IMG/VR virus record: IMGVR_UViG_2706794668_000012
Length of the DNA stretch: 4,350 nucleotides
Direction: 5' to 3' (one strand)
From: a virus
Lineage: Duplodnaviria > Heunggongvirae > Uroviricota > Caudoviricetes
In this document: positions 1 to 4,350 of the stretch, piece after piece
Layout of the letters: each line of letters opens with the position of its first letter
Position numbering within the stretch: the first letter of the stretch is position 1
The notes under the pieces: model-generated
The model's input: the letters and a program-made list of their open reading frames with translations, nothing else
What the model was told of the DNA's origin: nothing
Database searches by the model: none
Position numbers and translations under genes: made by a program

Positions 1-282
1 ATGTCGTCGGTAATGTGTGATGGTCTGTTAGTGGGTAATGCCGAAATTATTCCGTTCAGTCCGCGCAGGTATCTTTATCACGCCTATCTGGCATATATGA
101 GGGCACACGGATTCGGTAAACCTGTAACACTGACGCGCTTCGGTAAAGATATGCCGGGGGCAATGGCGGAATATGGCAGGGAGTATATGAAACGGAAAAC
201 GAAGCACGGTTTGCGTTCAAATGTGACCCTGACAGAGGATTCAGAAGACTGGATGCCATCATGTGCAATAGGTCACAAATGA
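1..282 (+). CDS. 3' portion of a replication protein gene, truncated by the window start; C-terminal region resembles P4-family (alpha-like) primase/helicase
   Basis: Open frame runs from the window edge to TGA at 280-282. The pattern LYHAYLAYMRAHGFGKPVTLTRFGKDM...GREY is typical of the conserved C-terminal segment of phage/plasmid P4-family primases. It lies immediately upstream of a TGTTCACC iteron array, the octamer bound by the P4 alpha C-terminal domain. The ATG at position 1 is probably internal, not the true start. Confidence 0.55.
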   Translation: MSSVMCDGLLVGNAEIIPFSPRRYLYHAYLAYMRAHGFGKPVTLTRFGKDMPGAMAEYGREYMKRKTKHGLRSNVTLTEDSEDWMPSCAIGHK

Positions 283-310
283 CGATGGAAAAAATTAAAC
301 TTATGGAATA

Positions 311-540
311 ACTGTTCACCACTGTTCACCCTGCAATAAATGTCTTTTATATCAGTATATTATAGGGTGAACAGTTATTTATGAACTGTTCACCAAACTA
401 TTCACTGTTCACCTTTTTGATTCTTTATTGAGCTTTAAGGGTGAACAGTGGTGAACAGTTGGTGAATAGTTTTTGTGAAACTGTTAACCCATTAACATCA
501 TGAATAAAAAGGGAAAATTGCAAAAGGTGAACAGGTGAAG
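311..540. repeat. Iteron array of TGTTCACC / GGTGAACA octamers (P4 type I iteron-like); candidate origin or cis replication region
   Basis: Perfect TGTTCACC at 313-320, 323-330, 387-394, 406-413; perfect reverse-complement GGTGAACA at 366-373, 440-447, 450-457, 526-533; degenerate copies at 399-406, 461-468, 482-489, 534-540. Segment 311-332 (actgttcaccactgttcaccct) is the exact reverse complement of 438-459. An AT-rich spacer lies at 333-365. Confidence 0.75.
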
Positions 541-585
541 GGTTAAAATGCAAAAATTTTATTTTATTGCTGTGAGGTAAAGCCT

Positions 586-831
586 GTGACAACGAAGCAC
601 GCCAAAAAACCACAATCTCACGCCCTTGATTTGACAGAACACTGGCTGAGGGTGGCGATAAAAATCATCGACCGCAACGCCGGGGAAGGATACGCGAAAG
701 CACATCCCGAACTGATAAGCGCATTCATGACCACGACGGCGGCAAACTTTGCCACGCTGACAGAACGGGAGATTGCCGAAGCGGAACAGGTGACAACCAT
801 CAACGTTAAAACCGGAGAGCAGACAGCATGA
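586..831 (+). CDS. Small hypothetical protein (81 aa), GTG start
   Basis: GTG at 586 is preceded by GAGGT (574-578) with a 7-nt spacer. Its stop TGA (829-831) overlaps the next gene's ATG (828-830) as ATGA, indicating translational coupling. No recognisable family from sequence alone. Confidence 0.55.
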   Translation: MTTKHAKKPQSHALDLTEHWLRVAIKIIDRNAGEGYAKAHPELISAFMTTTAANFATLTEREIAEAEQVTTINVKTGEQTA

Positions 832-1250
832 CAGCACAGATAGCGGCTTACGGGCGGCTGGTGGCTGACCCGCAGTTAAAGACCACCAGCAAGGGTACGC
901 AAATGACGATGGCGAGTATGGCGGTTCCCCTGCCGTGCAGCCAGGCAGATGACGGAACGGCGACGATATGGTTATCCGTCCTGGCGTTTGGCAGACAGGC
1001 TGACGCACTGGCAAAGCACCAGAAAGGCGAGCTGGTGAGCGTGGCGGGTAACATGCAGGTAAGCCAGTGGACAGGCCAGAACGGAGAAACGCGGCAGGGC
1101 TGGCAGGTTATCGCAGACAGTGTAATCAGTGCCAGAACGGCGCGACCGGGCGGTAAAAAAGGCCAACAGGGGCAGGCCACTGATGCACTGAACAGGGCCA
1201 AACAACAGGCGGGGAATGATGATCCGTACGGGGATAACATACCGTTTTAA
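828..1250 (+). CDS. ssb: Single-stranded DNA-binding protein (SSB-like OB fold) with short linker and acidic C-terminal tip ...DDPYGDNIPF
   Basis: The N-terminal ~110 aa align by eye with the E. coli SSB OB fold (IAAYGRLVADPQLK ~ VILVGNLGQDPEVR; WLSVLAFGRQADALAKHQKGELVSVAGNMQVSQWTGQNGETRQ ~ [43 protein letters not shown]). A Gly/Gln-rich linker follows, and the terminal DNIPF matches the SSB C-terminal DDDIPF partner-binding tip. GGAG at 814-817 precedes the start. Confidence 0.8.
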   Translation: MTAQIAAYGRLVADPQLKTTSKGTQMTMASMAVPLPCSQADDGTATIWLSVLAFGRQADALAKHQKGELVSVAGNMQVSQWTGQNGETRQGWQVIADSVISARTARPGGKKGQQGQATDALNRAKQQAGNDDPYGDNIPF

Positions 1251-3055: not shown

Positions 3056-3720
3056 ATGGCTTCTCTACATTAAACAAAGTGCCGGAAGGCGCGGAATATA
3101 AATACATCACCACCAGTGACCGTGGCGAACCAATCGCGCTGGCAACTTACGGAAATATTTTCAGCATTACCCGACAGGCGATTATTAACGATGACCTGAA
3201 TCAGTTAACAGTTATCCCACAGGCAATGGGGCGAGCAGCCGCCAGAACGGTGGGTAATCTGGTTCATCTGGTGCTGACAGGAAACACAAAGCTTTCTGAC
3301 GGTATACCGCTGTTCAGCAAAAAACACGGAAATGATATTGATAACGGAGTCAGCACTACAGGGCTTGGCATTGCACGCCGTGCAATGCGCACACAGAGGG
3401 ATGAAAACGGTGAGGTGCTGAATATTGTGCCAAAATTCCTTCTTGTTCCTGCGGCTCTGGAAGACAGAGCGTTGCAAATGGTTAACTCAACCACGCCTTT
3501 CGGTGCCGATACAAACAGTGGTTCATATAACCCGTACCACAAACAACTGGATATTATTGTCGATCCCCGCCTTGATGAAGTCAGTGATAAGCAATGGTAC
3601 ATGCTTTCAGCACAGGGAACGGACACAATTGAGGTGGCTTATCTTGACGGTAATGACGAGCCTTACCTTGAGCAGCAGGAGGGCTTTATTGTTGACGGTG
3701 TGGCCTGGAAGGTCCGCATT
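3019..3720 (+). CDS. Major capsid protein, HK97-fold family (partial: 3' end lost in the N run; true 5' start uncertain, frame is open from 2965)
   Basis: Protein-like frame -1 relative to the protease gene. C-terminal-proximal motifs resemble HK97-family capsid proteins (PKFLLVPAALEDRAL ~ HK97 PNAIVMNPTDWAAIEL; LDIIVDPRLDE...TIEVAYLDG...EGFIVDGVAWKVRI). Position directly after the prohead protease. No ATG until 3226; only a TTG at 3019 with a weak AAGG 4 nt upstream. Confidence 0.65.
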
Positions 3721-3986
3721 NNNNNNNNNNNNNNNNNNNNNNNNNNNNNNNNNNNNNNNNNNNNNNNNNNNNNNNNNNNNNNNNNNNNNNNNNNNNNNNN
3801 NNNNNNNNNNNNNNNNNNNNNNNNNNNNNNNNNNNNNNNNNNNNNNNNNNNNNNNNNNNNNNNNNNNNNNNNNNNNNNNNNNNNNNNNNNNNNNNNNNNN
3901 NNNNNNNNNNNNNNNNNNNNNNNNNNNNNNNNNNNNNNNNNNNNNNNNNNNNNNNNNNNNNNNNNNNNNNNNNNNNNNNNNNNNNN
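3721..3986. other. Run of 266 N (assembly gap or masked sequence)
   Basis: Uninterrupted n characters; removes the capsid gene 3' end and whatever follows it. Confidence 0.99.
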
Positions 3987-4030
3987 TTTTTGTTCGACAT
4001 CTTTTAGCGTGACAGATTCTTTACAAAAAA
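3987..4030 (+). promoter_or_regulatory. Bipartite motif copy 2: TTTTTGTTCGAC (3987-3998) - N21 - TTTACAAAAAA (4020-4030), 38 nt upstream of the next CDS
   Basis: Same two half-motifs and same 21-nt spacing as 1436-1479. It abuts the N run, so the 5' half may extend into the gap. Confidence 0.4.
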
Positions 4031-4068
4031 TCTGAGCTTGTTTTCTTAACCAGCGCGATGGGGGCACA

Positions 4069-4350
4069 ATGACAGAAGCCGAAATACTGGGATTAATCCG
4101 CCGCGTCGCCGGAATCAGCCAGCAGGTTGACGAACAGGCCATGCAACCGGACAGCGTGACCGCTGAAAATTATGCGCGTGTGGTGGATGAGGTAATGCGC
4201 CGTGACGGTATTGAGCTTAACGGCGTGGATATGCGCAACATACGAACCAGAGTTCTTGAGTTGCTGGCATACCGTCGCCGTTCTCAACAACGGAGGGAGA
4301 GCGCGAAAAATACTTACCAGTGGAGGAAGCCGGAGCACTTACGGCGGTAA
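4069..4350 (+). CDS. Hypothetical protein (93 aa) with Arg-rich C-terminus; possibly head-associated or nucleic-acid-binding
   Basis: ATG at 4069 is preceded by GGGGG (4060-4064) with a 4-nt spacer. Complete ORF ending TAA at 4348-4350. Protein-like composition with a basic tail (AYRRRSQQRRESAKNTYQWRKPEHLRR). No family recognised. Confidence 0.55.
   Translation: MTEAEILGLIRRVAGISQQVDEQAMQPDSVTAENYARVVDEVMRRDGIELNGVDMRNIRTRVLELLAYRRRSQQRRESAKNTYQWRKPEHLRR

Follow-up and report, generated by a model that had tools for sequence, protein, structure and literature searches.

A decayed Gram-negative PICI with a protease/capsid fusion gene between two putative cos sites in a Shigella sonnei-type genome

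The stretch of viral DNA analyzed here (4,350 nucleotides, hereafter the window) very probably comprises the end of the replication zone and the 'late zone' of a 9.9-kb Gram-negative PICI, which is inserted between the cspD and clpS genes of a Shigella sonnei-type genome, survives in this copy as a relic, and in its intact copies would follow a helper-driven life cycle. The element is a phage satellite and not a prophage, and its family is that of the classical Gram-negative PICIs of the EcCICFT073 lineage, neither capsid-forming PICI nor P4-like. EcCICFT073-type PICIs with a capsid gene are a class already published, of which the Shigella element is a decayed member. The main gain is one of correct annotation, a PICI relic that is neither prophage nor capsid-forming PICI, and otherwise the identification matters little.

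The window differs at 1 position in 3720 bases from the S. sonnei-type loci, and the flanks of these near-identical genomes place the 9.9-kb island after cspD and before clpS: host genes border it on each side, with chromosomal clpS/clpA downstream. An 18-nt att-like repeat, found ~450 nt past the window end, delimits 9,878 bp in locus L005, and its GGTGTAGT motif is common to the ends of EcCICFT073. Within these borders the order is integrase, AlpA, small ORFs, DUF4222, primase, replication origin, 81-aa ORF, SSB, small ORF, capsid fusion and 93-aa ORF; the named genes are all co-oriented, and two small ORFs (58 aa and 101 aa) are divergent. The integrase, outside the window at the island's left end, has 412 aa with Arm-DNA-bind_3 and Phage_integrase domains (loci L003-L018), and the regulator downstream of it matches PF05930 Phage_AlpA (E=1.7e-16). 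No terminase, portal, tail or lysis gene was found in the 9.9-kb island. A search with 19 helper late and lysis proteins within 20 kb returned no homolog except the capsid fusion, and tblastn with the helper portal, TerL and Nu1, taken together with the island gene list, gave no portal, adaptor, connector, HNH, TerS or TerL. Head-tail-lysis operons in phage order are absent from the island and present in phage loci (L027-L069), where they run Nu1-TerL-portal-protease/capsid-tail.

The original prediction of a satellite rather than a complete phage is borne out by the integrase and AlpA upstream, clpS/clpA downstream, the att-like repeats and the lack of helper late genes; of the features it proposed to look for in the flanks, integrase, alpA and att-like repeats are present, and portal, terminase and tail genes are absent. 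The suggested resemblance to capsid-forming PICIs has to be given up, since TerS, TerL, HNH, portal, adaptor and connector are missing and the affinity is with the EcCICFT073 lineage instead. PICI membership was scored on the Fillol-Salom 2018 criteria and the SatelliteFinder PICI model. The island has a left-end tyrosine integrase, AlpA, Pri-Rep with an iteron origin, a capsid gene and a small size, its 9,878 bp agreeing with the ~10-15 kb expected without tail, lysis, portal or head-tail connector genes. Homologs of TerS, Nu1 and RppA were not found, the identity of two cos-like sites to the cos region of the helper is 74-84%, and gene content alone would make the island a four-of-five 'Type B' PICI in the SatelliteFinder model. 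Capsid is one of five PICI core components (PMC10085698), and a major-capsid gene is carried by 21 of 29 reference PICIs (PMC10111431). Gram-negative PICIs show a four-zone organization with captured capsid genes, and some relatives are embedded in helper late genes (PMC10111431).

The window begins inside the primase gene. Positions 1..282 (plus strand) encode a C-terminal fragment of the PICI Pri-Rep primase, identified by Pfam (Pox_D5, E=2.6e-11), phrog_864 (DNA primase) and junction mapping, and equal to about the last 89 residues of an intact 596-aa protein. The end of an IS3-family insertion in the primase lies 3 nt upstream of the first window base, which makes the ATG at 1-3 internal to the gene; IS genes lie directly upstream of the fragment in loci L003, L004, L007 and L010. 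A 1-nt insertion near 271, seen in the alignment of the 3' end, changes only the last few primase codons. The intact sibling protein (596 aa; domains D5_N, DUF5906 and Pox_D5) shares 50% identity with P4 alpha across residues 320-771 (452 aa), which agrees with the P4-family primase 3' end recognized earlier from the window.

Directly 3' of the primase gene is the replication origin (297..535, unstranded), with ten iterons of the form (A/C)CTGTTCACC in direct and inverted orientation, separated by AT-rich spacers. The octamer TGTTCACC occurs within 313-533 in eight exact and two one-mismatch copies on both strands. Across the whole window, with up to one mismatch allowed, it matches 13 times where 3.8 would be expected, and 13 was attained in 0 of 200 shuffles, so the iterons of the original prediction stand. 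PICI origins sit 3' of pri (PMC6092414), and that of EcCICFT073 has the same position and geometry with another iteron word, CTGTCTACC. The Shigella octamer is identical to the annotated type-1 ori/crr iteron of P4; an exact P4 iteron word in a PICI replicon shows that modules are shared between the P4 and PICI lineages.

The replication zone continues with a conserved 81-aa ORF (586..831, plus strand; phrog_1231, E=4.7e-49), which is 87.5% identical to the same-position ORF of EcCICFT073 and overlaps the SSB start in an ATGA. The predicted SSB gene was recovered at 828..1250 (plus strand; PF00436, E=3.9e-16); its product is 72% identical to the EcCICFT073 SSB, and the exact protein occurs in S. 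sonnei Ss046 and many other assemblies. At 1686..1913 (plus strand), and reaching into the start of the fusion gene, is a small ORF of 75 aa if counted from its first ATG and of 64 aa in the calls made for relatives. It had been read as a small regulator, which finds no backing in its matches: there is no Pfam match, a PDB sequence search was non-significant, and phrog_4934, to which it belongs, is a family of unknown function. This ORF is satellite-specific; its homologs (38-69%) lie directly upstream of the fusion gene in 6 of 6 satellites from other genera, and those in the Escherichia coli loci L100 and L101 are 40-42% identical. No similarity was seen between it and the 68-aa ORF at the same position in EcCICFT073. 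The terminal ORF of the island (93 aa; 4069..4350, plus strand; phrog_1561) is 75% identical to the terminal ORF of EcCICFT073, and its PDB sequence search gave only non-significant matches. An Rpp or Nu1 identity for the small ORFs that follow the two cos-like sites was rejected, RppA and the helper Nu1-like protein having no tblastn match. The EcCICFT073 proteins RppA, PerC and hyp137, its capsid and its decoration protein likewise had no tblastn match in L001, L002, L004 or L005. The window has no Rfam match at the gathering threshold, and a consensus promoter/terminator scan gave nothing above shuffle expectation, missing plus-strand hairpins that are visible by eye.

The late zone holds a single fusion gene, a pseudogene in this copy, that joins a ClpP-like prohead protease through a linker to an HK97-type major capsid protein (1910..3777, plus strand, from Pfam and alignment, with the end coordinate taken from relatives). 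The ClpP domain lies in 1910-3055 (PF00574, E=3.7e-33; 381-aa ORF) and Phage_capsid_4 in 2965-3720 (E=1.3e-46), within an ORF fragment that runs from 2965 onward. Alignment places a 13-bp deletion at ~2974/2975, which splits the 626-629-aa fusion into a protease ORF and a capsid ORF. The original prediction of a protease gene followed by an HK97 capsid gene was therefore right about both domains but not about their number of genes. Intact fusions (626 aa in L005, 629 aa in L001 and L002) are annotated as fusion protein, and the PHROG matches are phrog_133/4523, head-maturation-protease and major-head families. The last 19 fusion codons, including the stop, fall under a run of N, and the C-terminus was recovered from L004. 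Programmed -1 frameshifting, for which the A5 run at 2964-2968 was considered, was rejected: the 13-bp deletion relative to intact alleles explains the change of frame, and it co-occurs with the IS lesions.

On either side of the capsid gene is a putative cos site. The first, helper-like one (cos1; 1281..1485, plus strand) was recognized in alignments to lambda cosQ/cosN and to the sequence upstream of the Nu1-like gene in an O157 lambdoid prophage. It comes after the terminator hairpin of SSB (GCCGGAGCAATCCGGC and a T-run, 1267-1288), and its parts are a degenerate cosQ-like AGGTACT (1291-1297), a cosN-like CACGGGGCGGGCGGTTCGCGG (1318-1338) and a cosB-like stretch to TTTACAAAAAAC. It is 74% identical to the helper over 164 nt and 84% identical to the second site over 96 nt. 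The replication module had been described as directly abutting the capsid module; no terminase or portal indeed lies between them, but cos1 lies in the 430 nt that separate SSB from the capsid module. In all close relatives the run of 266 N (3721..3986, unstranded) is matched by 233 nt (232-234) that contain the C-terminus of the capsid with its stop, a hairpin resembling a terminator (GGCGGCAGCAGCCGCC and a T-run) and most of the second site. Judging from these relatives, the source genome probably has the same content here, although the lengths differ (266 vs 233). The second site (cos2; approximately 3800..4040, plus strand, readable at 3987-4040) is the better conserved of the two, with an intact cosQ GGGTCCT, a cosN-like CACGGGGCGGGTCGGCGCGG and a cosB-like region in the L004 sequence.

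These two sites are direct repeats with a spacing of 2517 nt. The second is 84% identical over 210 nt to the cos region of the O157 helper prophage and 85-88% identical over ~200 nt to VT1-Sakai and Stx2a-converting phages, and the similarity of both to lambda is confined to motifs of 9-20 nt. From position and similarity, both sites would function as cos, and the cosB-like parts may directly mimic those of the helper. As a check for a family-wide rule, two cos-like repeats around the capsid gene were sought elsewhere; they were undetected in six satellites from other genera, and EcCICFT073 gave only a 22-nt terminator match. Such packaging-signal mimicry, with cos 84-88% like Stx-type lambdoid phages next to a capsid gene that is only ~51% identical, suggests that Stx-converting phages serve this PICI group as helpers. 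The first reading of the window did not include the two sites, one of which lies under the N-run, and cos is the main packaging determinant.

The degradation of this copy is invisible from the window alone. Three lesions are seen in the island: an IS splits the primase, IS1 adjoins int, and the 13-bp deletion frameshifts the capsid fusion. They occur together in 11 of 16 sampled loci, and the remaining 5 are intact. Because of these lesions, neither replication of its own nor production of the capsid protein is possible in the window copy, which is a decayed relic. Its cos sites appear intact.

How would the intact copies move? A life cycle can be modelled on the experimentally studied relative EcCICFT073, for which AlpA-dependent induction, pri/ori dependence, packaging at cos through the helper TerS and two functional cos sites have been reported (PMC6092414, PMC6739421). 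In this model, a lambdoid helper phage would turn on AlpA, and the integrase would excise the island. The P4-alpha-type primase/helicase would then fire the TGTTCACC origin, assisted by the island SSB, and produce concatemers. The helper terminase (Nu1-like TerS and TerL) would recognize the island cos sites, which imitate helper cosQ-cosN-cosB, and island DNA would enter heads, with portal, tails and lysis supplied by the helper. The helpers are likely Stx-type lambdoid phages that encode the same kind of ClpP-protease/major-capsid fusion in their head operon, and the island carries its own diverged version, to which a role can be ascribed only putatively. RppA, essential for efficient packaging of EcCICFT073, is absent, so the packaging logic of the island may differ.

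The role of this fusion is where the strongest alternative arises. The fusion and the small upstream ORF could form a satellite-specific head module, intermediate between classical and capsid-forming PICIs and more than a passive backup captured from a helper, that builds its own, maybe smaller, procapsids on the helper portal, to be filled by the helper terminase through the mimic cos sites, in a role like that of Ccm in SaPIbov5. We regard this as possible but rather unlikely. The satellite fusions group apart: the homologs from six other genera (57-62%) and from E. coli L100 and L101 (62%) all stand in PICI context, whereas those at or below 51% (43-51%) are all in Nu1-TerL-portal phage operons. 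The module was found in PICIs of Escherichia/Shigella, Kluyvera, Yersinia, Buttiauxella, Moellerella and Rahnella. Among 50,697 phage records the best identity to the fusion is ~51%, yet cos2 is 85-88% like the same phages. The dN/dS of the satellite fusions is ~0.13, the same in all three domains, and they appear to be under purifying selection. They lack ~35 aa of the post-protease linker found in phages and are shorter on average, the conserved small ORF is always beside them, and in the Escherichia/Shigella lineage the two helper-mimic cos sites flank them. On these comparisons, PICI capsid fusions may have a dedicated role. Deletion of the EcCICFT073 capsid gene, however, left transfer and interference unchanged and the packaged DNA all phage-sized (PMC6092414), although that capsid is of the unrelated lambda-E type. 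In addition, the fusions of L100 and of the O157 helper share 57% identity, so the gap between satellite and phage versions is not wide; purifying selection could stem from residence in unsampled phages; and the gene is broken in the window. If true, PICIs that build their own shells on a stolen portal and have a stolen terminase fill them would be a missing intermediate from classical to capsid-forming PICIs. A capsid fusion found only in satellites and apparently under purifying selection reopens the purpose of PICI capsid genes, which has been tested solely on the unrelated EcCICFT073 capsid.

The head gene could instead have been left beside a replication gene by chance in an ordinary defective lambdoid prophage. 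The lambdoid type of the capsid fusion and cos-like sequences, together with the IS insertions and frameshift, would suit such a remnant, but it is highly improbable given that intact siblings measure 9.9 kb, have att-like borders and carry the PICI backbone complete and in the order of EcCICFT073. Within 20 kb there is no further late, lysis or early gene of lambdoid type, and the same compact element recurs at several chromosomal sites and inside helper genes.

An equally remote reading is that of a P4-like satellite, a P2-dependent hijacker that acquired a capsid gene. The island shares with P4 an alpha-type primase/helicase (50% over 452 aa), identical TGTTCACC iterons downstream of the primase as in crr, and a Vis/AlpA-type regulator. 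When all 13 P4 proteins were compared with the intact element by tblastn, only alpha (50%), Vis (45%) and Int (23%) matched. The island differs from P4 in its other integrase, in cos sites and a capsid that are lambdoid rather than P2-type, and in having no homologs of sid, psu, delta, epsilon, cI, gop, beta or cII; the absence of the first five upholds the earlier view that this is no classical P4-type satellite. A non-viral, encapsulin-like compartment, which the HK97-type fold family and the position apart from other head genes might suggest, can be dismissed as next to impossible, since the best matches are Phage_capsid_4, Mu-like gpT and the PHROG head-maturation-protease and major-head families, homologs at 43-51% sit in complete phage head operons, and the gene, with cos-like sites on either side, is joined to a prohead protease; the non-viral homology that would have counted against the original prediction was thus not seen.

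The preferred reading, a decayed classical Gram-negative PICI, is best judged against EcCICFT073, the cos-type PICI prototype of E. coli CFT073, which carries two cos sites (PMC6092414). Homologs occur in the same order in both (Int 77%, AlpA 57%, Pri 48%, 81-aa ORF 87.5%, SSB 72%, 93-aa ORF 75%), and further points in common are the iteron origin 3' of pri, the late-zone capsid gene, the pair of cos-like sites, the GGTGTAGT motif of the att ends and the lack of terminase and portal. The late zone of EcCICFT073 consists of a lambda E-type capsid and a D-type decoration protein, whereas that of the Shigella island holds the ClpP-protease/MCP fusion; RppA, PerC and the 137-aa ORF of EcCICFT073 are lacking. 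The iteron word is TGTTCACC (P4 type) in the Shigella island and CTGTCTACC in EcCICFT073, and the integration sites are cspD/clpS and roxA/phoQ, respectively. The cosB-like part of the island resembles that of its helper, whereas the cosB of EcCICFT073 differs from its helper's according to the literature (PMC6092414; PMC6739421).

More distant systems share single modules. The capsid-forming PICI EcCIEDL933 has a similar int-alpA-pri left half and its own capsid and protease (bioRxiv 10.1101/2022.09.08.507074), but PICIs of this kind also encode portal, head-tail adaptor, connector, HNH, TerS and TerL, none of which the island has. SaPIbov5 combines a helper cos site with a diverged HK97-type capsid homolog (Ccm) and has no terminase or portal of its own (PMC5052747); it belongs to an unrelated Gram-positive lineage, and its Ccm is not protease-fused and has a demonstrated size redirection, whereas the role of the island capsid is putative (Carpena 2016, PMC5052747). 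The closest E. coli relatives (~91% nt, O157:H7) belong with the helper-embedded PICIs (HE-PICIs) described by Tommasini, Mageeney and Williams (2023, PMC10111431): they sit, co-oriented, within the gene for the large terminase in a lambdoid prophage. The Shigella copy is not itself an HE-PICI, because it is chromosomal and the identity of its integrase to the one in the embedded O157 copy is only 23%, but the layout is common to both: an int/AlpA zone, a Bro zone, a replication zone with Primase and SSB, and a late zone with a capsid gene and a shared cos-like segment.

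The window's SSB and terminal 93-aa protein have exact matches in many assemblies, among them CP000038.1, which we take to be Shigella sonnei Ss046. The near-identical locus L004 differs from the window by one base across 1-3720 and is identical over 3987-4350. The element in these genomes sits between cspD and clpS, with host genes on either side, and its gene order is integrase (Int), AlpA, four small ORFs, DUF4222, primase (Pri), an 81-aa ORF, SSB, a 64/75-aa ORF, protease/capsid and the terminal 93-aa ORF. An 18-nt att-like repeat delimits 9,878 bp in the intact Shigella-type sibling L005. 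The clpA-infA host flank of this sibling contains two CRISPR-DR4 repeat matches (16985-17072 and 17179-17263) and a tRNA, annotated as tRNA-Ser at the equivalent position in the E. coli locus L100; these are unrelated to the island.

Domain and motif searches recovered each feature listed in the original prediction: the primase 3' end (a 93-codon Pox_D5-domain ORF, 1-282), the iterons, the SSB gene (828-1250), and the protease and capsid domains (a ClpP protease-domain ORF at 1910-3055 and a Phage_capsid_4 ORF at 2965-3720), the last followed by a run of 266 N (3721-3986). The iteron TGTTCACC occurs in eight exact and two one-mismatch copies, on both strands, between 313 and 533. Allowing at most one mismatch, 13 copies were found window-wide against 3.8 expected, a count reached in 0 of 200 shuffles. 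Because Pri is 50% identical to residues 320-771 of the P4 alpha protein and the octamer is the P4 type-1 iteron, the replicon is of P4 type, and the description of a P4-type replication module was accurate.

The architecture of the island has already been described in the literature, and the element is a classical Gram-negative PICI (phage-inducible chromosomal island). Islands of this class combine int, alpA and pri-rep with an origin located 3' of pri, and many of them are packaged through cos (PMC6092414). Of 29 reference PICIs, 21 have a capsid gene (PMC10111431), which SatelliteFinder treats as one of five PICI core components while forbidding portal and connector genes (PMC10085698). 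The proposed resemblance to capsid-forming PICIs was not borne out, as portal, TerL, TerS, HNH and connector genes were not found in the island gene list, and protein searches with the helper portal, TerL and Nu1-like proteins found no homolog. Assignment to the P4-like satellites also fails, with sid, psu, delta, epsilon and cI not found in the element. An ordinary prophage, the refuting case named in the original prediction, is dismissed because a search of the 20 kb around the element with 19 O157 lambdoid-prophage proteins of late and lysis function found a homolog of the capsid fusion only. The original prediction is supported in part: it rightly points to a satellite, but the element is a relic of a classical Gram-negative PICI rather than cf-PICI-like.

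The two capsid-module genes originally read in the window are one gene. In E. coli relatives (~91% nucleotide identity) and intact Shigella-type siblings, a single gene of 626-629 aa is annotated as 'ClpP-like prohead protease/major capsid protein fusion protein'. At ~2974/2975 (within 2971-2978) the window is missing 13 bp, corresponding to CTTGCCGGATGGG in L005, and this loss shifts the frame and creates the look of two separate genes. The primase of this lineage is interrupted by an IS3-family element (L004 7975-9173) whose end lies 3 nt before window base 1, making the ATG at 1-3 a codon from within the primase; the whole window may represent one complete IS-bounded contig from a draft assembly. 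An extra A at ~271, relative to L005, the E. coli relative L001 and L100, alters only the final few primase codons and shifts the stop. IS1 lies between int and alpA, and the three lesions (IS3-family, IS1 and 13-bp deletion) occur together in 11 of 16 sampled loci, the other 5 being intact. The window's copy is a relic, unable to replicate autonomously or to produce the fusion.

The 430-nt spacer that follows SSB can be aligned with the sequence directly preceding the Nu1-like small-terminase gene in the O157 prophage, and also with lambda cosQ (GGGTCCT) and the left half of cosN (ACG|GGGCGG) at the correct spacing; the predicted cosN of this first copy is at ~1318-1338. As seen in relatives, the N-masked stretch covers the capsid C-terminus, the stop, a hairpin and then most of a second cos-like copy. 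The two copies, cos1 and cos2, form a direct repeat with a spacing of 2,517 nt on either side of the capsid gene. The second is better conserved: cos2 keeps GGGTCCT and matches the helper region with 84% identity across 210 nt, and VT1-Sakai and Stx2a-converting phages with 85-88% across ~200 nt, whereas cos1 has AGGTACT and 74% identity to the helper region (164 nt). Likeness to lambda itself does not extend beyond short motifs. Similarity and position together suggest that cos1 and cos2 act as cos sites. In all 15 close relatives with both flanks located, the 266-N run corresponds to 233 nt (232-234), and the 33-nt gap may be a gap estimate, a mask or a real difference. On the minus strand at 1481-1517, within the cosB-like part of cos1, there are two overlapping terminator-like hairpins with T-runs, in a terminator scan that overall was not above chance.

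By homology with the prototype EcCICFT073, a helper phage would induce AlpA in intact copies, Int would excise the island, and Pri with SSB would fire the iteron origin to give concatemers. Helper terminase would then cut and package at the mimic cos sites, and the particles would be finished with helper portal, tails and lysis functions. Helper TerS is retargeted to the PICI cosB by RppA (PMC6739421). Since Rpp is absent from the island, and the cosB-like part looks like that of the helper, we infer that packaging relies on direct mimicry of cos and not on retargeting of TerS.

Satellite and helper fusions within one O157 genome share 52% identity, with ~35 aa after the protease domain missing in the satellite, and none of 50,697 phage records searched with the fusion exceeded ~51%. 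Genomic context was surveyed in one genome per species. Each of the six homologs at 57-62% (two from Kluyvera, and one each from Yersinia, Buttiauxella, Moellerella and Rahnella) is immediately preceded by the small ORF, none has an adjacent portal, and five have AlpA, primase or integrase upstream; homologs at or below 51% all lie within Nu1-TerL-portal-fusion-tail operons. Satellite alleles compared with each other give a dN/dS of 0.13. These patterns allow, rather than prove, a dedicated satellite head function for the fusion. Against it, the EcCICFT073 capsid gene, of an unrelated type, is dispensable for transfer and interference (PMC6092414), the L100 fusion shares 57% identity with that of the helper, and selection may have acted on the alleles while in unsampled phages. 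Along the fusion (L005 11083-12963 against L001 15907-17796), the protease has a dS of 0.05, the linker 0.26 and the capsid domain 0.76, and such unevenness points to recombination breakpoints within the gene.

Two E. coli loci with an intermediate fusion are also PICIs. One shares the cspD/clpS site; its Int is 94% and its Pri 97% identical, but the fusion is just 62% identical and a Nu1-like gene is added, which indicates that the late zone is swapped as a module. In sister PICIs (L100 12035-12520, L101 11985-12527, L023, L024 and L026), unlike in the window's element, a gene of Nu1-like (DUF1441) or 'terminase small subunit' type separates the fusion from the terminal 93-aa ORF; the L100 protein is 48% identical to that of the O157 helper and unrelated to RppA. 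In O157:H7 H6437, a relative (~91% identical) divides a lambdoid prophage's large-terminase gene in two (L002 7279-8283 and 18701-19831); this prophage encodes a portal and a ClpP/capsid fusion of its own. The primase of the relative is 88% identical to that of the Shigella copy and its integrase only 23%. In E. coli RM10410 (L001 7675-18335), a copy of the island that has the embedded-type integrase lies between pgrR and mppA, and no prophage surrounds it; this could reflect off-target integration or a helper since lost.

The O157:H7 relative, inside a large-terminase gene, matches the published configuration in which PICI relatives are embedded in lambdoid helper late genes (PMC10111431). 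The closest comparison is with EcCICFT073, in which the capsid gene is c1499 and two cos sites are functional (PMC6092414). Its own lambda-E/D-type head genes, RppA, PerC and 137-aa ORF are absent from the window's element. Compared at the CFT073 locus, Int (77%), AlpA (57%), Pri (48%), the 81-aa ORF (87.5%), SSB (72%) and the terminal 93-aa ORF (75%) are shared and collinear. Origin geometry is likewise shared, with iterons of a different word (CTGTCTACC) in EcCICFT073, and the att ends of both elements contain GGTGTAGT.
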